Below, piece by piece: positions 16,576 through 60,579 of a stretch of 64,000 bases of DNA. The stretch is from assembly GCA_041611735.1 (NCBI GenBank), contig JBFIML010000006.1:59936-123935 (forward strand), read 5' to 3'. Made by a program: the position numbers and the translations under genes. Origin of the DNA: Myxococcota bacterium. GTDB lineage: Bacteria; Myxococcota_A; UBA9160; PR03. The notes beneath the pieces were generated by a model. It was not told the origin of the DNA, did no database searches, and saw only the letters and a program-made list of their open reading frames with translations. Numbering within the stretch: position 1 is the stretch's first letter; each line of letters starts with the position of its first letter.

Positions 16576-17739
16576 CTATCCCCCCGAGGCGGGATCTTCC
16601 GCGGCGGCGTCCGGGGGCGTGGGATCCTCGCGGTCCTCCAGCCAGCCTTTCGGCAAGGCCACGCGCTGTCGCCCCCCCGACTTGCCGCGCGGAACCCGCA
16701 GGGCGTGGGGCGGGAAGGGCTCGTCGGGGTCGAGCTGGGTCAGGATGCCCTCGAGCTCCGCCCGGGTCTCGATCGTCATGAGCTCGCGTCGCAGCCGAGC
16801 GCTGCCCGGAAACCCCTTGGTGTACCAGGCCGCGTGCTTGCGGAAGCCGAGCAGCGCCGTGCGTTCGCCTGCCCAGTGCGTGAGGAGCTCGGCGTGCTCG
16901 CGCATCACCTCCGCCACCTCGCCGAGCCGGGGCGGAGCGCTCGGCGGCCGTCCGGCGAACACGTCCGCCAGATCGCGGAACAGCCAGGGGCGCCCCAGAC
17001 AGCCCCGGCCGACCACGACGCCGTCGCAGCCCGTGCTGCGCATGAGGCGCAGCGCGTCGTGGGCCTCCCAGACGTCACCGTTGCCGAGCACCGGCAGTTG
17101 CGGGAGGGCCTGCTTCAGCTCGGCGATGGCCTCCCAGCGGGCCGCGCCGTCGTAGAGCTGAGCGGCGGTGCGGGCGTGAAGGGAGACCGCCGCACAGCCC
17201 TCGTCGGCGGCGATGCGGCCTGCGTCCAGGCAGGTCGGGTGGGCGTCGTCCAGCCCGATGCGGAGCTTGATGGTGATCGGCACGGGTCCGGCGTTGCCTA
17301 CCGCGGCGCGTAAGATGTCGCGCAGCAGGCGTCGCTTCCAGGGCAGGGCGGCGCCGCCGCCCCGTCGTGTGACCTTGCGCACGGGGCAGCCGAAGTTGAG
17401 ATCGACGTGATCGACCTGGCCCTCGCCGACCAGCCGCGCCACCGCCTCGCCCAGCGTCTGCGGATCGACGCCGTAGAGCTGGAGGCTGCGTGGCTTCTCG
17501 TCCGGGGCGAAGCGGGCCAGCCGCAGGGTCTTGGCGTGCCCTTCCAGGAGCCCGCGGGCGGTGATCATCTCGCTCACGTAGAGGGCGGCCCCGAAGCGCC
17601 GGCACAGGGTCCGGAAGGGCGCATTGGTGACACCGGCCATGGGAGCCAGGACCACCGGCGGCCACACGCGCAGCGGACCGATCTGGACCGGCCGGAATGC
17701 CTCGGGCCGGGCGGGCGGTGCGGCTCGTTGCGGGATCAC
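16576..17739 (-). CDS. dusB: tRNA-dihydrouridine synthase B
   Basis: VVLAPMAGVTN, DLNFGCPVRKV, LHARTAAQLYDG, GNGDV, GRGCLGRPW, RKHAAWY; GTGA overlap with DUF393 stop. Confidence 0.9.
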   Translation of the reverse strand: MIPQRAAPPARPEAFRPVQIGPLRVWPPVVLAPMAGVTNAPFRTLCRRFGAALYVSEMITARGLLEGHAKTLRLARFAPDEKPRSLQLYGVDPQTLGEAVARLVGEGQVDHVDLNFGCPVRKVTRRGGGAALPWKRRLLRDILRAAVGNAGPVPITIKLRIGLDDAHPTCLDAGRIAADEGCAAVSLHARTAAQLYDGAARWEAIAELKQALPQLPVLGNGDVWEAHDALRLMRSTGCDGVVVGRGCLGRPWLFRDLADVFAGRPPSAPPRLGEVAEVMREHAELLTHWAGERTALLGFRKHAAWYTKGFPGSARLRRELMTIETRAELEGILTQLDPDEPFPPHALRVPRGKSGGRQRVALPKGWLEDREDPTPPDAAAEDPASGG

Positions 17740-18158
17740 GACGAGAGGGTAGGGGGCGTGCAGCGATCTGCCTCGCACCCGACATGCCGACCCGTCAGGC
17801 GCAAGCGATTGCGGGCGAACCAGCCATAGCCGGCGTCGGCCAGTCGCCGGAGGCCCGGCCAGGCGGTGGGCGCCAGCAGCCAGCCGAGCCCGACGGCGGC
17901 GTAGGCGCGTCTGAATACCTCGACACCCTCGATGATCCGGCCGTCTGGCAGGCGCGCGTGGATGCGTGCCATCAGGGTGGACGGGTCGACGCCGTAGGGG
18001 CCGGCGTCGAAGCCCGCGGCGGCCAGGTTCGTGAAGCGGATGCGTCCGCGCCCGCGGTCCAGGCGTCGGAGCGCCGCGACCTCCCGGGTGCACAGGGGGC
18101 AATCGCCGTCGTAGAGGAGCTCGATCTGCCACACGGGCCTTCCGGAACTGCCTGCCAC
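17736..18158 (-). CDS. DCC1-like thiol-disulfide oxidoreductase (DUF393)
   Basis: LLYDGDCPLCTREV, YGWFARNRLRLTGR, C-terminal C-x4-C. Confidence 0.88.
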   Translation of the reverse strand: MAGSSGRPVWQIELLYDGDCPLCTREVAALRRLDRGRGRIRFTNLAAAGFDAGPYGVDPSTLMARIHARLPDGRIIEGVEVFRRAYAAVGLGWLLAPTAWPGLRRLADAGYGWFARNRLRLTGRHVGCEADRCTPPTLSS

Positions 18159-18191
18159 CCCCGCAGGCTAGGCAGTCCCCGCCCGCCGGGC

Positions 18192-18324
18192 AAGAAAATA
18201 ATCTAGACATGCTTGATATCAGCGCATCAGAAAGACGCAGAAATAACTATAAACAATTGATATATATAGATTATAATGATGTCTAAAAAAAATATAGACA
18301 ATATTCCATCAAGCCGGGTAGACT
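18192..18324. promoter_or_regulatory. AT-rich divergent promoter region with CarH/LitR-type operator sites
   Basis: TGTCTA-N9-TAGACA at 18280-18300; AAATAATCTAGACA at 18196-18209 identical to 24974-24987; candidate promoter TAGACA-N18-TAGACT (18295-18324); TATAAT at 18272. Confidence 0.7.
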
Positions 18325-18349
18325 ACACCCTCGGAGATCGGAGGGACCC

Positions 18350-19726
18350 ATGTTCAAAGACCCCGTCGCTGAGCCTTCGCAAGCGGAGGAAACCGCCGTG
18401 CAGACCTGGCCGGGCGGAAGCGTGGAGCGGCCGGCCCGGCACGGACGTGCCGCCCCCCGCGCCCTCGATTGCTACCTGGCCGAGATCCGGGACATTCCGG
18501 TCCTGAAACGCGAGCAGGAGGCCGAGCTGGCCCGTCGCATGCGGCAGGCCGAGGTCGAGCTGCGCCGGGGCCTGCTCGCCCTCCCGGAAGCGGCGCGTGT
18601 GCTCGTCGAACGCTGGACGCGGCTGCGCGCGGCGGGACGCGTGACCGGCCCCTGGAGCGCCCGCCACCGGGGCGGCGAGCGTGACGCCAGCCCGCACGTG
18701 GATCGCGTGCTGACCCACCTCCAGCGAAGCCTCGAGCGCCTCGAGCGTACAGCACGCGGACCGCGGGCCGCGCCCGAGCGGCGTCGCCTGGCGGCTCGGA
18801 TCACCCGCACCCTGGGTAACCTGGATGCAACCCCGGAGCTCCTGCAGGAGATCTACCGGGAGCTCGAGGCGCGGGGTGGCGTGGCCGCCTCGAGTCCCGG
18901 CTGGGTGCGTGCCCGGCGCGCCCATGCGGAGCTCAGCGACGCCAAGAACACCTTCATGCGGCACAACCTGCGCCTGGTCGTCTCCGTGGCAAAGGGGTTC
19001 CGGAGCCTGGGCGTTGAGTTCGAAGATCTGATCGAGGAAGGCAACCTGAGCCTGATGCGGGCCGTCGAGAAGTTCGATGCCGAGCGCGGCTTCCGCTTCT
19101 CGACCTACGCCGTGTGGTGGATCCGTCAGGCCTGCATCCGGGCGCTCCAGAGGACCTCCCGCACCATCCGCCTGCCCTCCCACCTGTACGACCGCCTGCT
19201 CCGCTACCGGCGCATCCTGGCCCACTGGTCGCGCGACCACCGGGAGGAGCCGAGCCTCGGCGATCTCGCCGAGGCCCTGGAGGTCGGCGAGGACGAGCTG
19301 ACGCAGCTGATCCAGGCCGACCGCCGACCGCTCGGTCTCCACGAGCCGGTGGAGGGCACCGAGAAGGCAAGCGTGGCCGACCGGCTGTCCAGCGGAGCCG
19401 TGAGCGCCGACGAGGCCCTGGACGGGCTGCGTCTGCAGGGTGAGATCCCGACCCTCCTGACCCGTCTCAGCCGCCGGGAACGCCAGGTGCTCGAATGGCG
19501 CTTCGGACTCGCTGAGGAGCAGGAGAAGACCCTGCAGGCCATCGGCGATTCCCTGGGCCTTTCGCGCGAGCGCGTACGCCAGATCGAGCGCGAGGCCCTG
19601 GCCAAGCTGCGCCGGCAGGCCGAGCTCAAGGGGCTCCACGACCTGCTGGGGCGGGTCGCGGCTCAGCCCGCCGGCTCGACGGAGGAGCCGGGCTCGAAGA
19701 GCTTGCGGATGCGTCGGAAGCGGTAG
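18350..19726 (+). CDS. sigma-70 family RNA polymerase sigma factor (RpoD/RpoS-like, no region 1.1)
   Basis: Region 1.2 LDCYLAEIRDIPVL, region 2 NLRLVVSVAK..FSTYAVWWIRQA, region 4 TLQAIGDSLGLSRERVRQIE; GGAGG SD. Confidence 0.93.
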   Translation: MFKDPVAEPSQAEETAVQTWPGGSVERPARHGRAAPRALDCYLAEIRDIPVLKREQEAELARRMRQAEVELRRGLLALPEAARVLVERWTRLRAAGRVTGPWSARHRGGERDASPHVDRVLTHLQRSLERLERTARGPRAAPERRRLAARITRTLGNLDATPELLQEIYRELEARGGVAASSPGWVRARRAHAELSDAKNTFMRHNLRLVVSVAKGFRSLGVEFEDLIEEGNLSLMRAVEKFDAERGFRFSTYAVWWIRQACIRALQRTSRTIRLPSHLYDRLLRYRRILAHWSRDHREEPSLGDLAEALEVGEDELTQLIQADRRPLGLHEPVEGTEKASVADRLSSGAVSADEALDGLRLQGEIPTLLTRLSRRERQVLEWRFGLAEEQEKTLQAIGDSLGLSRERVRQIEREALAKLRRQAELKGLHDLLGRVAAQPAGSTEEPGSKSLRMRRKR

Positions 19727-20142
19727 TCGAAGATGGCGGCCAGCGCCGCTCGCACCGCGAGGCCGTGAGCCAGGCTTCCCAGCGGCCCCAGCGGCAGGGC
19801 GTAGCGCACCCGGTCTCCCATCAGGACGCCGCCTCCCAAGGCGCGGAAGCTGTGCGTGTGTTGCCACGACGCATAGGGACCTCGCTCCTGCTCGTCCACG
19901 AACCCGACCGGCGGGGTCCAGCGAGTGATGCGGGTGCGCCAGCGCACCCACATCCCTGCCAGCCGCAACCGGTACTCGATGCGGGTGTCCTGGGCCATCT
20001 CGATGGGAAGGGGCGTCAGGATCCGAAAGCCGAGCCAGGGCGGCGTGATCACCTCCAGATTGGCGGCATCGGCGAAGAAGGCGAAGACCCGCTCCAGGGG
20101 CGCGGCGATCCATTGCTCGCGCTCCAGCACGTGCACCCTCAC
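19663..20142 (-). CDS. SRPBCC/START-like ligand-binding protein
   Basis: VFAFFADAANLEVITPPWLGF, FVDEQERGPYASWQHTHSF, IFDYR; GTGA overlap with the upstream gene. Confidence 0.87.
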   Translation of the reverse strand: MRVHVLEREQWIAAPLERVFAFFADAANLEVITPPWLGFRILTPLPIEMAQDTRIEYRLRLAGMWVRWRTRITRWTPPVGFVDEQERGPYASWQHTHSFRALGGGVLMGDRVRYALPLGPLGSLAHGLAVRAALAAIFDYRFRRIRKLFEPGSSVEPAG

Positions 20143-21170
20143 CGGGTCGATCCGGCCACCGCGTCGAGCCACGCGTCGATGCGCTCCCATTGCCCGTACA
20201 GCCAGTCGATGCGGCCGGGGCGGTCGCGTGGGATCTCCGTGGCCGGGACCCGCCACAGCATGACCTCGATGCGCCGGCCGACCAGGGCGCCGTGCCAGAG
20301 CTCGCCGAAGCTCGCCGTTCCCTCGAAGCCCGCATGGGCCAGGAACAGCACGTCGGCCTCGGGGCACGCTTCCAGCAGGGCCAGGGGGCCGCCGAGCCGC
20401 GGCGGGAGCACGTGACGCAGCTTCTGCGCGCGGGCAAGCAGCGCCGCGTCGCCCGAGCGTTCCAGGCGGGTCAGCACCCGCGCGCGCTTGGCCGGGCTGA
20501 AGCGCGTCCCCTCCGGATAGATCAGGATGCCCTCGTCCGGGGCGAGATCCTGGCTCACCTGGCGCAGCGCCTCGATCTCACGCTGGCGGTCGCCCGAGTC
20601 GCGGCGTACGAACAGGTGGGGAAGGCGCTGCCCCACCACGTCCAGGCAGGGATCCCAGAGCAGCTCCCGCTTGATCACGTAGCGCAGCCGCAGGCCCTGG
20701 CGGGCCGAGAGGAGCACCGCCGGGAGGATCGTGTCGCCCACGCTGGCGTGCCGCGCGAAGACCAGGAGCGGACCGCGCCCCACGCTCTCCGCGCCCTTCT
20801 GCTGGAACGCGAGTCCGTAGATGCGTCGCACCCCCAGGAAGAGCGCGCCCGCCCAGGCGTGCTGGAGACGATGGTTCCAGGCCCGGAAGCGCCGGGGATC
20901 CGCGCCGGCCCAGATGCCGCTGGCGAGCCACGCACCGAAGGCGGCGATCAGACCCAGGGTTTCGCAGAGCAGGTAGAAGGTCAGGAAGGCGAGGATCCGG
21001 GTGGTGGGAAGCGGCCGGCGCCGCGCCAGGTCAACCGCCAGGGCCGTCGGGAGCAGCACGGGCAGGCCGAGCAGGGCGAGCGCGGTCAAGGCGGTGTAGC
21101 CGGGCACCGTGATCGCGCGCCGTCCCCAGCGGGCGGCGAGCGACTCGTCGCGCGGCAACGGACCCTTCAG
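20139..21170 (-). CDS. PlsC-like acyltransferase with N-terminal membrane segments
   Basis: RHASVGD (HxxxxD), VIKRELLWDP, LIYPEGTRF, VLPPRLGG; start uncertain (CTG overlapping MFS stop). Confidence 0.82.
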   Translation of the reverse strand: MKGPLPRDESLAARWGRRAITVPGYTALTALALLGLPVLLPTALAVDLARRRPLPTTRILAFLTFYLLCETLGLIAAFGAWLASGIWAGADPRRFRAWNHRLQHAWAGALFLGVRRIYGLAFQQKGAESVGRGPLLVFARHASVGDTILPAVLLSARQGLRLRYVIKRELLWDPCLDVVGQRLPHLFVRRDSGDRQREIEALRQVSQDLAPDEGILIYPEGTRFSPAKRARVLTRLERSGDAALLARAQKLRHVLPPRLGGPLALLEACPEADVLFLAHAGFEGTASFGELWHGALVGRRIEVMLWRVPATEIPRDRPGRIDWLYGQWERIDAWLDAVAGSTR

Positions 21171-22570
21171 GGCGATCCTCCCTCCCGGCGCAGCGGGTCC
21201 GGCGCCTCCCGCCCCGCCCGGCGATCCATCACGGCCTCGCGGATGCGCTGGTGACGGACGCGATCGATGGGATAGGCGAGGGCGAGGCCGATTGCAATCA
21301 GGTTGCATAGGCACGGCACCAGCGCGTAGAGGATGCGCAGCGTGAGGCGGACCCCGGGCGTCTGCTCCACGTTCGGCTCGTAGCCGGCAGCGCCCAGCAC
21401 GGCCAGGGCCGCCCCCACGCCCAGGGCGGCTGCGAGCTTGCGGGCGATGGACCAGACGCCGATGTACTGCCCCTCGCGCCGCCGGCCGGTGATCAGCTCG
21501 TCGTAGTCGATCACGTCCGCCTGCATCGATGAGGGGATGGCGAGGGTGCCCCCCAGGCCCAGCCCGGAGAGCACCACCAGCACGGCGTAGGCACCCTCGT
21601 CCCCCGGGCCCAGGAAGAAGACGCCCAGGAAGGCGCAGGTGTTGACTGCCATGGCGGTGAGCCAGGCGGGCTTCTTGCCCAGGCGGTGCGCGAGTCCGAC
21701 CCACGCCGGGAGCAGCGCGATTCCGGTCACGAAGTAGAGCAGCAGGAACAGGTCGGCGCGCTTCGACTCGAGCACGTACTCCACGTAGTACAGGATCAAC
21801 GTAGCGGGGAGATTGCTGCCGAAGGCGGACACGGTGTAGGAGCTCAGCAGGATGCCGAAGGGCCGGTTGCGCAGCAGCGTGCGCAACTGGGGCCAGGGCG
21901 AGGCGCTGCCCGGGCGGCTCGCAAGGCTGCGCTCGGGCACGGCCATCACGCACCAGGCGCACGCCAGCAGCAGGAGCGGTGCGTAGAGCAGGGCGACGCG
22001 CAGGAACTTGGCGCGTTCTCCCGCGGCGTCGTCGGTCAGCCCGAAGGTCCAGGCCACTGCGGCCGGCGAGCTGGCGGCCACCAGGGTTCCGGCCAGGAGC
22101 GCCCCGTCCCTCCAGGCCATCAGCGCGGTGCGGGCGTCGTAGTCGAAGGTGATCTCGGGGCCGAGCGACTCGTAGGGGACGGTGACGGCGGTCCAGAACA
22201 GGAACAGTGCGAATACGGACCCGCCGAACCAGACCGCGGCCCATGGCGGCCCCGTCTCGGGAGGGATGAAGAGCAGCAGGATCGCCAGGGCCAGGGGCGG
22301 CGTGGCGCCCGCCATCCAGGGACGGCGGCGCCCGAAGCGGGTGCGGGTGGCGTCGGAGAAGGCGCCGATCAACGGGTCCGTGACCGCGTCGAAGATCCGC
22401 ACCGCCAGTAGCAGCGAGCCGATGGTCCCGATCCCGACGCCTACCACGTCGGTGTAGAACTTGGGCAGGTAGACGTAGACGGGGATGCCCACCACGGCCA
22501 GGGCAAAGGCCGGGGCCGCGTAGGCCATGCGCCGGCCCGTGGGGACGCGCTCCGGATCCGCGGGGTTCAC
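21167..22570 (-). CDS. MFS transporter, glycoside-pentoside-hexuronide (MelB-like) family
   Basis: RIFDAVTDPLIGAFSD..FGRRRPWM, ADVIDYDEL..RREGQYIG; about 12 TM. Confidence 0.9.
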   Translation of the reverse strand: MNPADPERVPTGRRMAYAAPAFALAVVGIPVYVYLPKFYTDVVGVGIGTIGSLLLAVRIFDAVTDPLIGAFSDATRTRFGRRRPWMAGATPPLALAILLLFIPPETGPPWAAVWFGGSVFALFLFWTAVTVPYESLGPEITFDYDARTALMAWRDGALLAGTLVAASSPAAVAWTFGLTDDAAGERAKFLRVALLYAPLLLLACAWCVMAVPERSLASRPGSASPWPQLRTLLRNRPFGILLSSYTVSAFGSNLPATLILYYVEYVLESKRADLFLLLYFVTGIALLPAWVGLAHRLGKKPAWLTAMAVNTCAFLGVFFLGPGDEGAYAVLVVLSGLGLGGTLAIPSSMQADVIDYDELITGRRREGQYIGVWSIARKLAAALGVGAALAVLGAAGYEPNVEQTPGVRLTLRILYALVPCLCNLIAIGLALAYPIDRVRHQRIREAVMDRRAGREAPDPLRREGGSP

Positions 22571-22653
22571 GCGCTGGCCGCGGGACGCAGGGCGGGGATA
22601 GCATGACGGCGGGGCACGCGGCGCAGCACCACCGGCCGCACGGGGAGTGAGGC

Positions 22654-23010
22654 ATGCCGCACGTGGTGATCGAGGGCTCCGTGGACCCGGGGCGCCTCTT
22701 CGAAGAGCTCGAGCCCGTCCACGAGGCTGGCTCGCACGGCGTACGCCGCACCGGTGAAATCTTCCTGAACCGGCGGCGGGACACGTCGCTGCTCGAGGCG
22801 GTGGTGGTGGAGCGCGGCTTGCGCCAGCGCTTCTTCGTGCTGATCTCCCGCAAGGGGGCAGGCGTGACCGTGAGGCTCGAACCGTCCACGCAGCCCGAGA
22901 AGACCGAGGGCGTGAAGCGGCTGCTGGCGGCGGTGGGCCGCCGGGTCCGCACCCATTTCCCGGACACCCGCTACGGACAAACCAACCTCGCCGACTGTCT
23001 CGACGCCTGA
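22654..23010 (+). CDS. hypothetical protein (118 aa)
   Basis: GGAG/GAGG SD then MPHVVIEG; globular composition; fits between MFS and SDR genes. Confidence 0.7.
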   Translation: MPHVVIEGSVDPGRLFEELEPVHEAGSHGVRRTGEIFLNRRRDTSLLEAVVVERGLRQRFFVLISRKGAGVTVRLEPSTQPEKTEGVKRLLAAVGRRVRTHFPDTRYGQTNLADCLDA

Positions 23011-23027
23011 GGCGCGGGGCAGCCGGA

Positions 23028-24032
23028 TCAGGCGGGCGGGCGCGGCCTGGGGGCGGGTCGCCGCGGCCGTGCCAGGCGCGTGGCCCGCAGGACGGTCGCG
23101 ATCCCCGCCAGGCGCTCGCACGCGTCCCACAAGCGTTCGCGGTCCTCCGGGACCTCGCGCGTGAAGGGCAGCCGGTGGGTGGATGCCGGGGCGCGATCGA
23201 ACCAGAAGGCCCCACTCTGCAGCGCAGGCCTGGCCGCCGCGGCCAGCCAGACCACCGTGTCCGCCCCCTGTTCGGCGCAGCGCAGGATGGAGCGCGTCAC
23301 CCGCCAGAAGCCGGGGAGCGAGCTTCGCACCGCAGGGGTGTCGGCCCAGCCCGGATGCATGGCGTGCACGACGACGCCAGCCCGGCGCAGGCGCTCGGCG
23401 AGCAACTCGGCCAGGACCACCTGCATGCGCTTGGTCTGGGCGTAGGCGCGCGTTCCATCGAAGCGGCGCTGCTTCCAGTCGAGGTCCGCCAGGGACAGGC
23501 GCTGGGTGTACATGCCGCCGGAGGAGACGAAGATCACCCGCGCATGACCGGACGCACGCAGCCGCGGCTCGAGGAGCCGGGTCAGCAGGAAGGGGCCGAC
23601 CACGTGGGTCGCGAGCGTGAGCTCGAGGCCCTCCGGGGTCTCCTGCCGCTCGGCGGGCAGCACTCCGGCGTTGTGGATGAGGACGTCGACGCGCGGCTCG
23701 GGAAAGTCCGCCACGAAGGCCCGTACGGAGGCGAGGCTCGACACATCGAGCCGGGCGAGCCGCACCTCCCGGTTGCCGGTCTCTGCACGTAGCGAGGCCT
23801 CCGCCTCCCGGCCGCGTGCCTCGTTCCGGCACAGCAGCCACACCCGCGCCCCGCGCTGGGCGAGGGCGCGGGCGGAGGCCCGCCCGATGCCGGAGTTCGC
23901 GCCCGTCACCAGACACACCCGGCCGGCGAGATTCACGTCCAGGTCCTCGCTGCGAAAGCCGCGCGCGTGACGCCGGAAACCGCTCCGGTCGAAGGAGAAG
24001 ACGATGGAGGCGTCGAGGAGGCGACCGATCAC
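23028..24032 (-). CDS. short-chain dehydrogenase/reductase (DHRS12-like)
   Basis: VTGANSGIG, HNAG, VSSGGMY, YAQTK, MHPGWADTP; ATGA overlap with carH stop. Confidence 0.9.
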   Translation of the reverse strand: MIGRLLDASIVFSFDRSGFRRHARGFRSEDLDVNLAGRVCLVTGANSGIGRASARALAQRGARVWLLCRNEARGREAEASLRAETGNREVRLARLDVSSLASVRAFVADFPEPRVDVLIHNAGVLPAERQETPEGLELTLATHVVGPFLLTRLLEPRLRASGHARVIFVSSGGMYTQRLSLADLDWKQRRFDGTRAYAQTKRMQVVLAELLAERLRRAGVVVHAMHPGWADTPAVRSSLPGFWRVTRSILRCAEQGADTVVWLAAAARPALQSGAFWFDRAPASTHRLPFTREVPEDRERLWDACERLAGIATVLRATRLARPRRPAPRPRPPA

Positions 24033-24937
24033 GATGCCCGCCTTGCGCGCACGCCGAGCAGGGCCACCCGCTGCTCGAGCTCCTCGATGGAGTGCAGCCG
24101 CCGTACTCCCGTCGGGAGCGCCAGGGCCTCGCTGGCCCTCCCGCCCACCCAGACCTCCACGGCCGCGGGCAGCCCGGCGCGCAGGGTGCGCAGCGCGCGT
24201 TCGCCCTCGCGCTTGGAGAGCTGGACCACTCCCAGGGCGACGGCATCCGCTTCGAGGGTCTCCGCGGCGTGCAGCAATTCCGCCGGGGGCAGATCGGGCC
24301 CCAGATAGATGGCGTGAGCGCCCGACTCCGTGGCCGCCACCGCACCCATCAAGACCCCCAGCTCGTGCCGCTCTCCGGGTGGCGTCGTGAACACGACGAC
24401 GGGCGCTCCGAGCCCGCCGCGCCGGCGCAGGGAGGCACCGAGCAGGCTTCGCACCAGGCTGCTCGCCAGGTGTTCGGAGGCCATGCAGAGCCGGCCGCCC
24501 TGCCAGCGCTCCCCGATCTCGCGCAGCAGCGGAGCCGCCACCGACGCCGCAAAGCGGAGCGGCCCCAGGGCCGCGAGCTGGAGCGCCAGCAGGCGCTCGG
24601 CCTCGGCCGCGTCGAGCCGCTCGACGACGGCGAGGATCGCCGGGATCGGAGCCTCGGGCGGGGCGGCATGGGCGGCGACGCGGCGCTCGAGCTCCGCATC
24701 GTCCAGGCGTGCCGCCTCGGAGATCGAGTGGCCCGCCTCGGTCGCTGCGCGCAGCCGGCGCAAGCGCCTGACGTCCGCCTCCCGATAGCGGCGCGTGCCG
24801 CCCGGGGTGCGCAGCGGCCGTATCGCCTGGTAGCGTCTCTCCCAGGCGCGCAGCACGTGGGGCGAGAGCCCGGTCAGGCGCGAGACCGCCCCCAGGGAGT
24901 AGGTGGGCTCCGGTTTGGCCTCGACCCTGCGACCCAT
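24029..24937 (-). CDS. carH: CarH/LitR-type MerR-family adenosylcobalamin photoreceptor repressor
   Basis: MerR HTH LRAWERRY..RTPGGTRRY; W-x9-EH (WQGGRLCMASEH) and E-x-H-x2-G (ERHELG); YLGPDLP; divergent from photolyase. Confidence 0.9.
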   Translation of the reverse strand: MGRRVEAKPEPTYSLGAVSRLTGLSPHVLRAWERRYQAIRPLRTPGGTRRYREADVRRLRRLRAATEAGHSISEAARLDDAELERRVAAHAAPPEAPIPAILAVVERLDAAEAERLLALQLAALGPLRFAASVAAPLLREIGERWQGGRLCMASEHLASSLVRSLLGASLRRRGGLGAPVVVFTTPPGERHELGVLMGAVAATESGAHAIYLGPDLPPAELLHAAETLEADAVALGVVQLSKREGERALRTLRAGLPAAVEVWVGGRASEALALPTGVRRLHSIEELEQRVALLGVRARRAS

Positions 24938-24966
24938 GGCCGGAGCTTCGAGGCTGGCGGGGCAGT

Positions 24967-24997
24967 TGTCAATAAATAATCTAGACAGCGGTTGACG
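24967..24997. promoter_or_regulatory. putative CarH operator between carH and photolyase
   Basis: TGTCAA-N9-TAGACA (24967-24987) plus TTGACG 10 bp after TAGACA; the only AT-rich patch in the intergenic region. Confidence 0.7.
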
Positions 24998-25069: not shown

Positions 25070-26476
25070 ATGCGCGCGCTCCACTGGTTCCGTAGCGACC
25101 TGCGCCTGCGCGACAACGTGGCCCTCTCGGCTGCGGCGGAGGCCGCCGACGAGCTGATCCCCGCCTTCGTCTTCGACGAGCGCCTGCTGGCTGGGGGCGT
25201 CGGTGCGCCCCGGCTGCGCTTCCTGCTGGGCAGCCTGGAGCGCCTGGCGGCGGACCTGGAGGAGCGCGGCCAGCGCCTCGTCGTGCGGCGCGGCGACCCG
25301 CGTCGCGAGATCCCTGCGCTCCTCGAGGAGACGGGCGCCGAGCTCCTCACCCTGAACCGCGACTACGGGCCGTATGCGCGCCGGCGCGACGAGGCCGTGC
25401 GCATCGCGGCGGAGAAGCGCGGCGTGCGGGTGCACGACTGCAAGGATCGCGTCGTCTACGAGAGCCACGAGATCCGCACCCGCTCCGGCGATGCGTACCA
25501 GGTCTATACTCCCTACCGACGCGCCTGGATGGCGCGCTGGCGCGAGGATCCGCAGGAGCCGCTCGGGCCGCTCCGACTCCCGCCGCACCCGGAGAAGCTG
25601 CGCGCCGGTCGGCTGCCCAGCGAGCAGGAGCTCGGGGTGGCGGACGACGGGGTCGAGATCCCGACGCCCGGGGAGTCGGCGGCCCGGCGCAGGCTGGATC
25701 GCTTCCTCGAGGTCGGGATCGCCGACTATGCCCGCCGCCGCGACCTCCCGGCCGAGGACGGCACGTCGCGGCTCTCCCCGTACCTGCGGCTCGGTGTGGT
25801 CTCCATCCGCATGTGCCTGGCCGCGGCGCTCGAGCGGGGGCGCGAGGATCGCAAGGCGACCGATGGCGTGCGAACCTGGGTGGACGAGCTCGTATGGCGC
25901 GAGTTCTATCACGCGATCCTCGCCGAGCATCCCCACGTGCTGAGGCGCGCCTTCAAGTCCGACTTCGATCGGGTGCGCTGGAACGACGACGAGCAAGGCT
26001 TCCGGGCCTGGTGTGAGGGGCGCACCGGGTATCCGTTCGTGGACGCCGCCATGCGCCAGTTGGCCAAGACCGGCTGGATGCACAACCGGGCGCGCATGGC
26101 GGTGGCCAGCTTCCTGACCAAGGACCTGTTGGTGGACTGGCGTCGCGGGGAGAGGTTCTTCATGCAGCGCCTGGTGGACGGCGACCCGGCCTCCAACAAT
26201 GGCGGCTGGCAGTGGGCGGCCTCCACGGGGACGGATGCGCAGCCGTACTTCCGCATCTTCAATCCCGTATCGCAGGGGGAGCGCTTCGACCCGGACGGGC
26301 GCTACGTGCGCCGCTTCGTGCCGGAGCTCGAGGGGGTCCCGGACCGCTTCGTGCAACGGCCCTGGCAGGCGTCCGAACCACCCCGGGACTATCCGGCGCC
26401 GATCGTGGACCACGCCGAGCGTCGGATTCTGGCGCTGCGCCGCTACGAGGCCGCGCGCCAGGGCAGGCAGGGGTGA
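25070..26476 (+). CDS. phrB: deoxyribodipyrimidine (CPD) photolyase
   Basis: WFRSDLRLRDN, GTSRLSPYL, ELVWREFY, GRTGYPFVDAAMRQL, WMHNRARM, NNGGWQW, YFRIFNP. Confidence 0.95.
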   Translation: MRALHWFRSDLRLRDNVALSAAAEAADELIPAFVFDERLLAGGVGAPRLRFLLGSLERLAADLEERGQRLVVRRGDPRREIPALLEETGAELLTLNRDYGPYARRRDEAVRIAAEKRGVRVHDCKDRVVYESHEIRTRSGDAYQVYTPYRRAWMARWREDPQEPLGPLRLPPHPEKLRAGRLPSEQELGVADDGVEIPTPGESAARRRLDRFLEVGIADYARRRDLPAEDGTSRLSPYLRLGVVSIRMCLAAALERGREDRKATDGVRTWVDELVWREFYHAILAEHPHVLRRAFKSDFDRVRWNDDEQGFRAWCEGRTGYPFVDAAMRQLAKTGWMHNRARMAVASFLTKDLLVDWRRGERFFMQRLVDGDPASNNGGWQWAASTGTDAQPYFRIFNPVSQGERFDPDGRYVRRFVPELEGVPDRFVQRPWQASEPPRDYPAPIVDHAERRILALRRYEAARQGRQG

Positions 26477-27483
26477 CGGCCGGGCCCGGGGGCGACGGCG
26501 GTTCGGCTCCCGGGGCGCGCCCGCTCTGGCACGACGATGCCCCGATCCGGGTCGGCATCTCCACCTGTCTGCTCGGTCGCAAAGTGCGTTACGACGGCGG
26601 GCACAAGCGCGACCGTTTCCTCACCGACGTGCTGGGCCCCTACGTGGAATGGGTGCCGGTGTGCCCGGAGGTGGAGCTCGGTCTGGGGATCCCTCGCGAG
26701 CCGATCCGGCTGGTGCGCGCGGGTGGCGAAGTCCGGCTCGTGGCCGAGCGCAGCGCACGCGACCACACCCGCGCCATGCAGAGCTGGGCCGGTCGCCGGG
26801 TGCGCGAGCTCGAGAAGCTCGAGCTGTGCGGCTACGTGCTGAAGAAGGGGTCTCCGAGCTGCGGCATGGAGCGGGTGCGCGTCTACCAGGAGGGCGGCAT
26901 GCCGCAACGCGACGGACGCGGCCTGTTCGCGGACGTCCTGATCGGCCACCTGACGAGCCTGCCCGTGGAGGAGGAGGGGCGACTCCACGATCCCCGGCTG
27001 CGCGAGAATTTCGTGGAGCGGGTCTTCGCGTACCGGCGCCTGCGGTCGTTGCTCGCCGCTCGCTGGAGCGTCGGCTCGCTGGTGACCTTCCACACGGCTC
27101 ACAAGCTCCAGCTCATGGCGCACTCGCCCGAGGACTACCGGCGCCTGGGCCGGGTCGTGGCGGAGGCCCGCCGGCTGCCGCGCCGCCAGCTGGCGGAACG
27201 CTATGGCGGGGGGTTCATGCGCGCCCTGGCCCGGACCGCGACGGTGCGTCGCAACGTGAACGTCCTCCAGCACGTGCTGGGACACTTCAAGAAGCGGCTG
27301 GACCGGGACGCGCGCGCGGAGGTCCTCCAGCTGATCGAGGACTATCGCCGCGGGCTCGTCCCGCTCGTCGTCCCCCTCACGCTGATCCGCCACCACGTCC
27401 GCCGGCTCGACGTCGACTACCTGGCGGGCCAGGTCTTCCTGGATCCCCACCCCAAGGAGATGATGCTCCGGAACCACGTCTGA
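26473..27483 (+). CDS. DUF523-DUF1722 fusion (TudS-YbgA; RudS-type thiouridine desulfidase)
   Basis: GISTCLLGRKVRYDGGHK, VCPEVELGLGIPRE, KKGSPSCG, EEEGRLHDPRLRENF, FHTAHKLQLMAHS, PHPKEMMLRNHV. Confidence 0.88.
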   Translation: MTAGPGGDGGSAPGARPLWHDDAPIRVGISTCLLGRKVRYDGGHKRDRFLTDVLGPYVEWVPVCPEVELGLGIPREPIRLVRAGGEVRLVAERSARDHTRAMQSWAGRRVRELEKLELCGYVLKKGSPSCGMERVRVYQEGGMPQRDGRGLFADVLIGHLTSLPVEEEGRLHDPRLRENFVERVFAYRRLRSLLAARWSVGSLVTFHTAHKLQLMAHSPEDYRRLGRVVAEARRLPRRQLAERYGGGFMRALARTATVRRNVNVLQHVLGHFKKRLDRDARAEVLQLIEDYRRGLVPLVVPLTLIRHHVRRLDVDYLAGQVFLDPHPKEMMLRNHV

Positions 27484-31355: not shown

Positions 31356-31501
31356 GCCGGCCAGCCGCTTCGCCCCGGCTTCTGGCTGCCACCTGCGCCC
31401 GCTCCGCGCCACTTCCTGGCTGAGAACCCTCACGAGGGCGCAGGCCCGGGGGGTAAGTGCGTCCACGGCAGCGCTGTGCGGCGGCCCGGGGAGAGGCGGA
31501 C

Positions 31502-32260
31502 ATGCACCCGATTCGGACTTCCGGCGCCTCGGTCCGGGTGCTGGGCATCGGCGTCCTCGCGCTGGCGTGGCTCGTCGCGCCCGCCGCCCAGGCCGTCCCG
31601 CTCTACTTGACGGGGGGCAACACGGGCTTCGACCCGGCGGCGGTGGCCGCCGCAGGTCTCGCGCCGTTCTTCGTGGCCGATCCGAGCGACGTCTTCCTCA
31701 GCGCGGGGGCTCCCACCACCGGCTTCAGCCCGCAGCTCTCCGTGGTGGAGACCGCGCGCAGGACGCGGAGCAATCCCCAGGCCACGGCAGGCACCCCCTC
31801 GCTCCTCGATCCTGCCCGGGTGGACGTGACCCTCCGCATCACCAACGAGACGGCGGATGCGCTGGTGACGCCGGTCCTGCTCTTCCTCGGGGGCAACCCG
31901 AACGCGACCCTCGGCGACCCCGCGGTGACCGCCATGGGGCTCGAAGCGGATCTGCTCGACGAGATCCTGCGCTTCCGGTCCGCGCCGGACGCCGACCCCC
32001 TCCTGTACGGCGTCCTGGCCCTCCCCAGCCTGGCGCCCGGGGATTCCGTGCATCGTGTGATCCGCTACGTGGTGTCGGACACCATGCGCCTGATCCAGGA
32101 CCCGACCCGATGCGCTCCCGACCCCTCCCCCTGCGTCGTGGTGCCGCCCTACGTCCTCACCGGGATCGACAATCCCACGGTCATCCCGGAGCCGGCGGCC
32201 GTCGTGCTCCTGGCGGCTGGCCTGCTGGGGCTCTTCGGGGCACGCCGGCGGTGCGGCTGA
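31502..32260 (+). CDS. PEP-CTERM sorting-domain protein
   Basis: Signal peptide (..APAAQA) and C-terminal IPEP-AAVVLLAAGLLGLFGA-RRR. Confidence 0.88.
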   Translation: MHPIRTSGASVRVLGIGVLALAWLVAPAAQAVPLYLTGGNTGFDPAAVAAAGLAPFFVADPSDVFLSAGAPTTGFSPQLSVVETARRTRSNPQATAGTPSLLDPARVDVTLRITNETADALVTPVLLFLGGNPNATLGDPAVTAMGLEADLLDEILRFRSAPDADPLLYGVLALPSLAPGDSVHRVIRYVVSDTMRLIQDPTRCAPDPSPCVVVPPYVLTGIDNPTVIPEPAAVVLLAAGLLGLFGARRRCG

Positions 32261-33891
32261 CGCGCCGCCCGGGAGGCACCTGGGCGGTCGCCCTGGGCCT
32301 CCTGCTCGCTGCGGTGCCGACGGCTCGCGGCGCCGAGGAGGAGACGGTGCTGCGTCTGCGGGGCGAGCGGCTCGCCGCGCAGGGGCACTGCCAGGAGGCG
32401 ATTCCGCTCCTCGAGAAGGTCCTGGCGGCCCGCCCTTCCGATGCCCGGGCCGCCTTCGTGGCCGGCCAGTGCCGCGTCCGTCAGCAGCGCTACACCGAGG
32501 CCGCCCAGCTCTTCGAGCGAGCCCGCCAGGCGGATCCCAGCCTCGCCGAAGCCGAGCTCTACCTGGGCATCGCGCGCTTCCACCAGGGCGACCTGGCGGC
32601 GGCGGAACAGGCCCTCGACGCGGCCGCTCCCCGCCTCCCCGATCGGGCCGAGCTGCACCTCTACCGGGGTCTGGTCCTGCTGCAGCGCGCCCAGTCGCGC
32701 GAGGCGGCGACGGCCTTGGAGCGCGCGCGGACCGGCGACCCGGACCTCGACCCGATCGCCTCCTACTACGCCGGATTGGCCTGGGCGGACGCGGAGGAGA
32801 GGAAGCAGGCCGAGGAGGCGCTGCGGCGGGCCCGCCAGCACGCACCGGGCACCGAGTGGGCGACCGAGGCCGACCGGGCCCTGGAGCGGCTGGCGGCGGG
32901 GGCGACCCCGCCCTGGTGGCTGCGGGCCACGCTGGGTGGCGAGTACGACGACAACGTGGTGCTGCGCGCCCAGGGAGTGACGCTGCCCGACGAGATCGGG
33001 CGCGCCCACGACGTGCGCGCGGTCTGGGAGCTGGAGGCGGGCCGCCAGCTCTGGCGCGGCCGCGACTGGGGCCTCGGCGCGCGCCTCGCCTATCGCGGGT
33101 CCGCCCACCAGGACCTGGAGGATTTCAACGACCACTACCCGGTCGGCTCCCTGTGGCTCGACCGGCGCCTGTCGGAGCGGGCCCTGGCCCGGCTCCAGTA
33201 CGACCTCGGCTACGCCTGGTATCAGGGCGATCCCTTCCTGGTCTCCCACGTCCTGACCCCGGCGGTCTTCCGCTACTGGGGAGCGGCGGGGCGCACGGAG
33301 CTCTTCGCCCGGCTGCGGCGCTACAACTTCCTGTTCGGCAACGACGACGTGGTCGACGCGGGGGCGGGCGGCGCCTGCCCCCCCGGCTTCCTGACCTGCG
33401 GTCCGCCGGGTCTCGACGAGGATTCGGCGCGCAATCGCGACGGGCAGGGCGTCTCGGCGGGTGTCGAGCACGTGCTTCCCCTGGCCCTGGCCGAGGCCCG
33501 CCTGCGCGGTGGCTACACGTACCATCGCTACAGCGCGCGGGGGAGCGAGTACTCGTTCCAGGGTCACGAGGTGCACGCGGGGGCCCAGGCGAGCCTGCCC
33601 GCGGCCTTCGTGCTCGACGCGCTGGTGAGCTACACCTACCGGCCGTACCGCAACCGCTCCACCTTCCCCGACCCGGCAGACGTCCGCTTCGACGGAAACC
33701 CGTATCCTCTCCAGAACGAGCGCCGCAGCGACGACGCCTGGCGCTTCGAGGTGGGGCTCGGGCGGGCCGTGACGGAATCGCTCAGCGCGGCGGTGCGCTA
33801 CGGCTACTACAAGCAGCACTCGAACGCCGCGGTCTTCGACTACGATCGCGAGATCCTGGGCTTCTACCTGACCCTGGCCCTGCAGCCCTAG
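32251..33891 (+). CDS. TPR-repeat plus C-terminal outer-membrane beta-barrel protein (DUF560/Slam-like architecture)
   Basis: Signal peptide, several TPRs (AELYLGIARF, LHLYRGLVLL, ASYYAGLAW), then GGEYDDNV and amphipathic strands ending FDYDREILGFYLTL. Confidence 0.75.
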   Translation: MRLTRRPGGTWAVALGLLLAAVPTARGAEEETVLRLRGERLAAQGHCQEAIPLLEKVLAARPSDARAAFVAGQCRVRQQRYTEAAQLFERARQADPSLAEAELYLGIARFHQGDLAAAEQALDAAAPRLPDRAELHLYRGLVLLQRAQSREAATALERARTGDPDLDPIASYYAGLAWADAEERKQAEEALRRARQHAPGTEWATEADRALERLAAGATPPWWLRATLGGEYDDNVVLRAQGVTLPDEIGRAHDVRAVWELEAGRQLWRGRDWGLGARLAYRGSAHQDLEDFNDHYPVGSLWLDRRLSERALARLQYDLGYAWYQGDPFLVSHVLTPAVFRYWGAAGRTELFARLRRYNFLFGNDDVVDAGAGGACPPGFLTCGPPGLDEDSARNRDGQGVSAGVEHVLPLALAEARLRGGYTYHRYSARGSEYSFQGHEVHAGAQASLPAAFVLDALVSYTYRPYRNRSTFPDPADVRFDGNPYPLQNERRSDDAWRFEVGLGRAVTESLSAAVRYGYYKQHSNAAVFDYDREILGFYLTLALQP

Positions 33892-59436: not shown

Positions 59437-60579
59437 ATGCTGAAGCGTCGTCTGTTCACGCCGGGGCCGGTCCCGGTCCCCGACCGGGTGCGTCTGGCGA
59501 TGGCGCAGCCCATCGTCCATCACCGGGCGGCCGACTTCCGTCCGATCTTCGAGACCTGCCGGCGCGGACTCCAGCGCGTGTTCCAGACCGAGCAGCCCGT
59601 GCTGGTGTTCGCCTCCACGGGCACCGGCGCCATGGAGGCGGCGGTCGCGAACTTCCTCTCCGCCGGCGATCGGGCCCTGGTGGTGCGGGGCGGGAAGTTC
59701 GGCGAGCGCTGGGCCGAGATCTGCCAGGCCTTCGGGGTCGAGACCACCTGCATCGACGTGGAGTGGGGCCAGGCGGTGGACCCGGCGCGGGTCCAGGCGG
59801 CGCTGCGCGCCCAGCCCGACGTGAAGGCGGTGTTCGTGCAGGCCTCGGAGACCAGCACCGCCGTGCGCCATCCGGTGCGGGAGCTGGCGGAGATCGTGCA
59901 CCGCGACGGCGAACGCCTGATCGTGGTGGACGGCATCACCGCCGTGGGCGTCTACGACCTCCCCATGGACGCCTGGGGGCTCGACGTGGTGGTCTCGGGC
60001 TCCCAGAAGGCCTTCATGCTGCCGCCGGGCCTGGCCTTCCTGGCCCTCTCGGAGCGTGCCCAGCGCTTCCGCAAGCAGGCCTGCCAGCGGCGCTTCTACT
60101 TCGACCTGGACGCCGAGATCAAGATGCAGGCGGACAACCAGACCGCCTGGACGCCGGCGGTATCGCTGCTGGTGGGCCTGGCCGAGGCGCTGCGCATCCT
60201 GCTCGACGAGGAGGGGCTCGAGGCCACCTGGCGGCGCACCGAGGCCCTGGCCCACGCCACCCGCGAGGCCATGCGCGCCATGGGTCTCGAGCTGCTGGCG
60301 CCCGACGCGCCGAGCCCTGCCTGCACGGCGGTGCGGGTGCCGGCGGGCATCGACGGCCCCGCCCTGCGCAAGCACCTGCGCGACGCGCTCGGGCTCCACG
60401 TGGCCGACGGCCAGGGCAAGCTCAAGGGCAAGATCTTCCGCATCGCGCACCTCGGCTACTACGATCGCTTCGACGCCGTGACGGCCGTCGCCGCCGTGGA
60501 GATGGCGCTCGCCGCCCTCGGCTGGACCGGGAAGTTCGGCGAGGGCGTCCGCACCGCCACCGAGCTGCTGCGCGACTGA
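59437..60579 (+). CDS. class V PLP aminotransferase (alanine-glyoxylate family; probable phosphoserine aminotransferase role)
   Basis: LFTPGPVPVP, STGTGAMEAAV, ETST, VDGIT, SGSQKAFMLPPGL, FRIAHLG; directly upstream of serA. Confidence 0.9.
   Translation: MLKRRLFTPGPVPVPDRVRLAMAQPIVHHRAADFRPIFETCRRGLQRVFQTEQPVLVFASTGTGAMEAAVANFLSAGDRALVVRGGKFGERWAEICQAFGVETTCIDVEWGQAVDPARVQAALRAQPDVKAVFVQASETSTAVRHPVRELAEIVHRDGERLIVVDGITAVGVYDLPMDAWGLDVVVSGSQKAFMLPPGLAFLALSERAQRFRKQACQRRFYFDLDAEIKMQADNQTAWTPAVSLLVGLAEALRILLDEEGLEATWRRTEALAHATREAMRAMGLELLAPDAPSPACTAVRVPAGIDGPALRKHLRDALGLHVADGQGKLKGKIFRIAHLGYYDRFDAVTAVAAVEMALAALGWTGKFGEGVRTATELLRD

Follow-up and report, generated by a model that had tools for sequence, protein, structure and literature searches.

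Predicted control of an RpoD-like sigma factor gene by the B12 photoreceptor CarH in a Myxococcota bacterium

Can a B12-dependent photoreceptor hold a housekeeping-type sigma factor under its direct control? The question is raised by a 64,000-nucleotide stretch of DNA from an uncultured marine Myxococcota bacterium (the window: positions 59,936 to 123,935 of contig JBFIML010000006.1, assembly GCA_041611735.1), in which the gene for a CarH-type repressor (24029..24937, minus strand) and the gene for a sigma-70 family protein (18350..19726, plus strand) share a candidate operator. Dark repression that depends on B12 is known CarH biology, and the original prediction for this locus was that CarH directly gates the sigma factor. 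Using 61 genomes of the same family and order for comparison, we consider it likely that, in the dark, CarH bound to adenosylcobalamin (AdoB12) blocks the -35 elements of carH itself, of the photolyase-ybgA gene pair and of the sigma gene, and that light would release all three.

The window contains two full operators, namely TGTCAA-N9-TAGACA at 24967-24987, between the divergent carH and photolyase genes, and the palindromic TGTCTA-N9-TAGACA at 18280-18300, upstream of the sigma gene; in addition, the 14-mer AAATAATCTAGACA at 18196-18209, which is identical to 24974-24987, represents an operator half-site. All three sequences are found where the original prediction had placed them. To score these sites, we employed a matrix trained on relatives, using 18 sites that precede their carH genes, with no site from this genome (G000) and none from a sigma promoter. 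With this matrix, the carH-photolyase site (35.9 bits) and the sigma site (28.4 bits) are the best and second-best in the genome; the next site scores 15.5 bits and the half-site 8.6 bits. A second matrix, from 6 sites of other families, yields the same top two (35.4 and 31.4 bits, with the next site at 20.5). The expected number of sites with at least 28.4 bits is 0.0005 per genome, and none of 3,000 random 800-bp windows of the genome reaches 20 bits. The genome scan for TGTCNA-N9-TAGACA that had been suggested as a check returned three places, the two window sites and the edge of contig C58 (14.5 bits), and the 14-mer occurs only twice in the 4.09-Mb genome, both times in the window. In G003, a relative of the same family, the orthologous sigma site, TGTCTA-N9-TAGACA, scores 30.2 bits, with both halves kept and the spacer changed. 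The carH-photolyase site is likewise kept in relatives.

The sigma site lies in an AT-rich island (18174-18362) with a minimum of 25% GC, compared to 72% for the genome, and this island is the sole stretch of the assembly with 100-bp windows below 40% GC. The island sequence is real rather than an assembly artefact: a contig from a different study matches positions 17600-20992 with 0 differences. The data sets that contain this DNA are marine and sediment metagenomes, with no RNA data set listed among them. The right half of the 18280-18300 palindrome coincides with the predicted -35 element of the sigma gene, and the predicted -10 element, TAGACT (18319..18324, plus strand), follows at 18 bp; in G003, the respective element is TACACT at 17 bp. 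The proposed overlap of the operator with the predicted sigma -35 holds. At 24967-24987, the left half of the operator is the predicted -35 of carH (TTGACA, minus strand), and the predicted photolyase -35, TTGACG (24992-24997), begins 4 bp past the operator. The distance between the sigma gene and carH is 6.7 kb, within a single photostress cluster whose whole gene order is kept in G003, so the description of the sigma gene as distant was an overstatement.

The 14-mer can be assigned differently from what was originally proposed. It abuts the predicted -35 of the divergent gene for a DCC1-like (DUF393) thiol-disulfide oxidoreductase (17736..18158, minus strand; Pfam PF04134, E 2e-29), and most likely serves that promoter (18165..18193, minus strand), which is predicted to comprise a -35 TTGCCC (18193-18188), a 17-bp spacer and a -10 TAGCCT (18170-18165), 6 bp before a GTG start. 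The resulting arrangement on the minus strand, TGTCTA-N10-TTGCCC-N17-TAGCCT-N6-GTG, has the same geometry as the carH promoter, TGTCTA-N9-TTGACA-N17-GAAGCT-N6-ATG, and TAGAC is retained at the aligned half-site position in G003. A second sigma operator at this position appears less likely, given that the half-site is located on the predicted DUF393 promoter. With the -10 hexamer six bases before the start codon, both carH (start 24937) and the DUF393 gene (start 18158) look leaderless, and many predicted -10 hexamers at the compared loci (L013-L024) lack the first T (GAAGCT, GAACCT, CATTCT). Between the half-site and the full site, the island also contains WATCAANNNNTTR (18250..18262, minus strand), an exact match to what we take to be the consensus of integration host factor (IHF), one of 8 such matches in the genome, which is only partly kept in G003; visual inspection also showed IHF-like sequences in the AT-rich DNA that precedes carH in some relatives. 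The IHF site may explain part of the AT-richness of the island, and IHF could contribute to regulation there. In Myxococcus xanthus, IHF is required for light activation of carQRS (PMC8156234).

What kind of sigma factor is encoded next to the operator? The 458-aa protein contains region 1.2, a non-conserved region, and regions 2, 3 (weak) and 4, whereas region 1.1 is absent (Pfam). The primary RpoD of this genome, encoded on contig C64, has region 1.1 and the canonical RQAITRAI motif and is 37% identical to the window sigma over 299 aa. A primary (group 1) sigma is ruled out by the lack of a Sigma70_r1_1 match and an NCBIfam RpoD score of 227.6 against a cut-off of 555, and RpoS by scores of 236 and 229.6 against cut-offs of 378.7 and 394, respectively; an extracytoplasmic function (ECF, group 4) sigma of the LitS/CarQ type is incompatible with the length of the protein and the presence of regions 1.2, 2, 3 and 4. 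Of the RpoD/RpoS-like assignment in the original prediction, the first half therefore stands and the second does not. Group 2 sigma factors are RpoD-like proteins with regions 1.2-4 and without region 1.1 that are encoded beside a primary sigma, and the window sigma has all these features; it is a member of a family of RpoD paralogues that is specific to the lineage and lacks region 1.1. Four such paralogues (C5, C6, C26 and C63) are present in this genome besides the primary RpoD, and no operator was found at the three other than the window sigma (C5, C26 and C63). The C26-type paralogue evolves slowly and occurs widely across the order.

The regulator belongs to class I AdoB12-type CarH by its motifs. 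This 302-aa protein consists of the MerR_1, B12-binding_2 and B12-binding domains (Pfam), and its DNA-binding domain (MerR_1, E 3.8e-17) contains the recognition motif RAWERRY, a version of RxWERRY, which we take as a label of CarH/LitR-type DNA-binding domains. The W-x9-EH motif is present as WQGGRLCMASEH and is found in 35 of 36 aligned CarH matches. The second B12 motif, ExHx2Gx41SxV/Tx22-27GG, is represented by ERHELG, x41, GVV, x26 and GG, with one deviation (S to G). The Pfam B12-binding domain scores 30.3 bits, slightly below the 32.1 cut-off. In a comparison with the PDB, the CarH structures 3whp and 5c8d rank first (E 1e-34), and the closest named CarH, from a Myxococcota metagenome-assembled genome (MAG), is 60% identical. 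The two B12 motifs are the features that define CarH (PMC8156234). The genome encodes a PduO-type adenosyltransferase, and no CobA/BtuR adenosyltransferase was found in it. Full-length CarH is encoded in 34 of the 61 genomes of the family and order. The absence of carotenoid genes, originally noted for the window, extends to the whole genome (95% complete) and to G003 (87% complete), where no match to the phytoene/squalene synthase family (PF00494) was detected. Genes of this family are present in 14 of the 16 other family members, nearly always as pairs that are possibly hopanoid genes.

To determine whether the operator accompanies sigma genes beyond this genome, we examined 126 RpoD-like genes, mostly from about 190 matches of which 44 were unlisted, with preference given to the best-scoring paralogues; 5 genes with less than 400 bp of upstream DNA were left out of the count. 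An operator was called at 20 bits or more, with a 9- or 8-bp spacer, within 650 bp upstream of region 1.2. Such sites precede 10 of the 81 RpoD-like genes in the 34 genomes with full-length CarH and none of the 40 in the 26 genomes without it. The ten genes span 5 of the 12 families (G000, G003, G014 and G015 of f1; G017 of f2; G045 and G050 of f10; G026 and G056 of f11; and G027 of f12), and all of them fall within a single fast-evolving clade, hereinafter clade C (45 of 125 tips; FastTree support 0.944 and 0.999), with a mean depth of 1.53 compared to 0.40 for the one-per-genome paralogue. A clean clade consisting of CarH-linked sigmas alone was rejected, given that they are interleaved with site-less ones in this tree, which was built without a formal topology test. 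The phylogeny and synteny checks that accompanied the original prediction thus gave ten operator-bearing sigmas in one clade and a gene order kept in G003, and the motif, whose loss before orthologues was to count against the prediction, is conserved in G003 and before related sigmas of four other families. Through this comparison of relatives, CarH control of the sigma promoter appears well supported.

The link takes several forms. The sigma gene that follows the site in G027 is distant from carH (0.615 Mb and 3.360 Mb, respectively); G042 and G057 have folE2 between the operator and the sigma gene; G022 has a second carH gene that leads directly into the sigma gene; and in locus L109, a closely similar sigma is encoded beside carH, the sole such case among the 37 loci of the CarH scan, three others being distant matches. 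The G017, G026 and G056 sites combine an 8-bp spacer with an 11-bp direct repeat, and partial sites of 13-14 bits precede the clade C sigmas of G006, G037 and G059. Elsewhere in the relatives, operator sites are located upstream of genes for photolyase, cyclopropane synthase/amine oxidase/DUF1365, folE2, DUF2867, fasciclin and ferritin-like proteins, most of which are typical of photo-oxidative responses; some further sites precede genes without a clear link to light. Among the 37 named loci of the CarH scan, the palindrome directly precedes carH in L108, L121 and L130; in L121 and L130, which come from proteobacterial MAGs, it scores 24 and 26 bits, so its distribution extends beyond this order.

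A natural control is provided by four of the 61 genomes, all of family f4, in which a CarH-like protein has a different, HTH_17-type helix-turn-helix domain (L285:6693-7565 in G036, L288:3136-4008 in G019, L289:7854-8729 in G053 and L286:7627-8523 in G048). In this variant, Wx9EH is retained and ExH is replaced by DPY. In all four genomes, the variant gene is divergent from a clade C sigma gene and adjoins the photolyase gene, so that this sigma clade became tied to photolyase clusters more than once. At the f4 sigma promoters, the palindrome scores 0-10 bits, which makes it weak or absent, and these promoters share a GrACGwTTyGArCG-like motif, a GAACG repeat. Because genomes with a different DNA-binding domain carry a different motif, the palindrome tracks the RAWERRY-type regulator rather than the sigma, which argues against autoregulation of the sigma.

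In the mechanism we propose, AdoB12-bound CarH would occupy in the dark the palindrome TGTCwA-N9-TwGACA at the carH, photolyase-ybgA and sigma promoters, and the weaker half-site would probably cover the DUF393 gene. Light would break the Co-C bond, CarH would leave the DNA, and the repair genes and the sigma gene would be transcribed; the sigma would then redirect RNA polymerase to a second, operator-free set of genes.

How does this scheme compare with known light-responsive systems? The closest parallel is Streptomyces LitR-LitS, in which an AdoB12 photosensor controls the ECF sigma LitS, encoded divergently from litR, which drives crtE (PMC11519972). There, as we propose for the window, an AdoB12-type LitR/CarH controls its own promoter and that of a sigma gene, and the sigma drives a second tier. 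In contrast to LitS, the window sigma is RpoD-like (regions 1.2-4) and has an operator of its own, located 6.7 kb away from carH, and, as regards carotenoid targets, the genome yielded no gene of the phytoene/squalene synthase family. With class I CarH, the window system shares the order of domains, the Wx9EH and ExHxxG motifs, the TnnACA half-site and the position of the operator over a TTGACA-type -35, but the His beside the Trp of Wx9EH is replaced by Gln and the Ser of SxV by Gly. The known targets of class I CarH are mainly carotenoid genes (PMC8156234, PMC9304148), unlike those predicted in the window. The Pseudomonas class II LitR proteins (PplR/PmlR) resemble the window system in their regulon, which includes photolyase, a short-chain dehydrogenase, an FAD oxidoreductase, furan-fatty-acid synthase, cryB and folE, and in the paired-hexamer operator over the -35; they differ in lacking a full B12 domain, in their LOV protein partner and in the consensus T(G/A)TACA-N12-TGTA(C/T)A, and the accessible text describes no sigma target (PMC9758184). 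Finally, the original prediction associated light-linked sigmas with the ECF type, yet the non-essential, RpoD-like group 2 sigmas SigB and SigD of Synechocystis are induced in high light (PMC8875361); the host is a phototroph, and control by a B12 photoreceptor or an operator goes unmentioned in the abstract of that paper. Neither a CarH-controlled RpoD-like sigma nor an operator of this kind turned up in a search of the open-access literature (main texts), and direct control of a group 2-type sigma by CarH would be new here.

Several observations weigh against the proposed CarH control of the sigma gene. The first concerns the type of operator. The published operators of class I CarH, from Thermus thermophilus, Bacillus megaterium and Myxococcales, consist of 3-4 tandem 11-bp direct repeats (PMC8156234, PMC9304148); what had looked like a palindrome in M. 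xanthus was subsequently reinterpreted as such repeats (PMC9304148). Here, in contrast to these tandem repeats, the dominant form is an inverted pair whose halves are 9 bp apart, together with an internal pseudo-repeat, and no perfect pair of tandem 11-bp repeats (nAnnTnnACAn) is present at either window site, a test that concerns the type of operator and not the family of the CarH protein. When the spacing is not assumed, TGTnnA-N9-TnnACA is found in 21 of 37 carH promoter regions (shuffle mean 0.1) and 11-bp direct repeats in 8 (shuffle mean 0.15), with each other inverted spacing occurring at most twice. The published direct-repeat mode may nevertheless apply because a wAGAwA pseudo-repeat precedes each half-site by 11 bp, on the strand of that half-site. 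Second, the link is patchy: 25 of the 35 clade C sigmas from genomes with CarH have no strong site, a close orthologue of the sigma within family f1 was found in G003 only, the G014 and G015 sites are located about 340 bp from the start codon, the G045 and G050 sites are common to a divergent carH and hence not independent, and the relatives in general are not independent samples. Third, region 2.2 of the sigma reads DLIEEGNLSL in both this genome and G003 compared to DLxQEGN in the 24 other listed paralogues, and if the Gln has the role in core binding that we presume, this change from Q to E could weaken such binding.

The last point bears on the second tier of the scheme, where the most serious alternative arises. 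CarH could control the sigma gene while the sigma itself has a narrow or weakened function, as a passenger in the photostress cluster or a competitor for core polymerase, rather than being the wide transcription switch of the original prediction; this would be compatible with the first tier as proposed, and we regard such a role as about as likely as a broad one. The alternative draws on the region 2.2 change shared with G003, on the much faster evolution of clade C compared to the one-per-genome paralogue, on the lack of the operator in most members of that clade, and on G026, G041 and G046, where the sigma gene is the first in a string of lipid-modification genes. Conversely, the DNA-recognition signatures in regions 2.3-2.4 and 4.2 (RFSTYAVWWIRQ and SRERVRQIE) are kept, and both this genome and G003 have an intact gene preceded by a good ribosome-binding site. 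The DUF2867 gene and the cryB operon carry the operator in relatives and not in this genome; absence of operators from stress genes would be expected if their control were delegated to the sigma, and fits such delegation without proving it. Inspection by eye of the regions upstream of photostress genes on contigs C5, C18, C50, C57 and C60, with no formal motif search, revealed no candidate motif of a sigma regulon that stood apart from common -10-like hexamers.

A second alternative is that the palindrome is read, mainly or additionally, by another LitR-like MerR protein that has the same RAWERRY recognition-helix motif as CarH and no B12 domain, in which case the sigma would respond to a redox or other signal. 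This regulator is the only one of the two found in G004, G008 and G040, where sites of 17.0, 26.3 and 18.3 bits precede, respectively, a DUF393 gene, a photolyase gene and the regulator gene itself, which also counts against CarH as the reader. In this genome, a copy is encoded on contig C5 beside cryB and ybgA. However, this copy is 214 aa long, corresponds in alignment to residues 7-171 of an intact homologue of 326 aa, lacks the CECPNHL motif and looks internally deleted; the best operator score within 44 kb around it is 5.8 bits; and in G003 (87% complete), both operators are kept and no second MerR was found at E 1e-15. We consider this alternative unlikely. Intact homologues of the second MerR in relatives have the CECPNHL motif at the C-terminus. 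The C5 copy (L277) is part of a second photostress cluster (C5:27423-38800) that contains no operator and also encodes dps-like, ybgA, DUF2867-like and lipocalin-like genes, cryB and oxidoreductases.

Still more doubtful is the possibility that the sigma promoter is not repressed from the 18280 site, which would instead belong to the divergent DUF393 gene or, together with IHF and the half-site, take part in activation or looping. The half-site, the exact IHF consensus and the full site all lie within 105 bp of the island, and the operator often has a DUF393 gene directly beside it; against this, the sigma start codon, at 50 bp, is closer to the full site than the DUF393 start, at about 120 bp, a conserved TAnnnT lies at the spacing that makes the right half of the site a -35 element in this genome and in G003 alike, and four clade C sigmas (G027, G017, G026 and G056) have sites without a divergent DUF393. 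A chance origin of the matches in an AT-rich promoter island can practically be discounted: the AT content of the island far exceeds that of the genome, and 57 of 20,000 dinucleotide shuffles of it reach 20 bits, but none reaches the observed 28.4 bits, and the halves are conserved in G003 despite the changed spacer.

The remaining genes of the cluster complete the context in which CarH and the sigma would operate. From left to right, the DUF393 gene (minus strand), which is also frequent in the carH clusters of relatives, and the sigma gene (plus) are followed by genes for an SRPBCC/polyketide-cyclase-like protein (19663..20136, minus; PF10604/PF03364), found in carH or sigma clusters of relatives; an acyltransferase (20139..21158, minus; PF01553), encoded downstream of sigma or carH in many relatives; an MFS_2/GPH-type transporter (21167..22570, minus); a 118-aa open reading frame without a family match (22654..23010, plus); and a short-chain dehydrogenase (23028..24032, minus), which overlaps the stop codon of carH. 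Beyond carH are the genes for a PhrB-type DNA photolyase (25070..26476, plus; Pfam and NCBIfam) and a YbgA-like protein with a 2-thiouracil desulfurase domain and DUF1722 (26473..27483, plus; PF04463 and PF08349). Farther downstream (31457-33891), the window encodes, judging by translation only, a PEP-CTERM-like exported protein followed by a TPR-containing protein of outer-membrane type. Elsewhere in the genome, an AT-rich palindrome of about 20 bp is repeated 25 kb apart on contig C8 (58009-58028 and 83295-83314), possibly as the operator of another regulator.

If the proposed CarH control is correct, a non-photosynthetic bacterium would have placed a housekeeping-type sigma under the direct control of a B12 photoreceptor, and the LitR-LitS design would reach beyond ECF sigmas and carotenoids. 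The operator, with its conserved inverted spacing, provides a sharp test of whether class I CarH recognises an inverted repeat, and so compact an operator (21 bp), coupled to a sigma amplifier, could be of use in optogenetics. For the order as a whole, we put forward more tentatively, as a possibility that is rather doubtful at present, that a clade of RpoD-like sigmas is an output of B12 photoreceptors, with CarH reading the palindrome in a mode previously undescribed for class I proteins, with the sigma re-wired to at least two types of regulators that differ in DNA-binding domain and motif, and with broad reprogramming by light in the absence of a carotenoid response.

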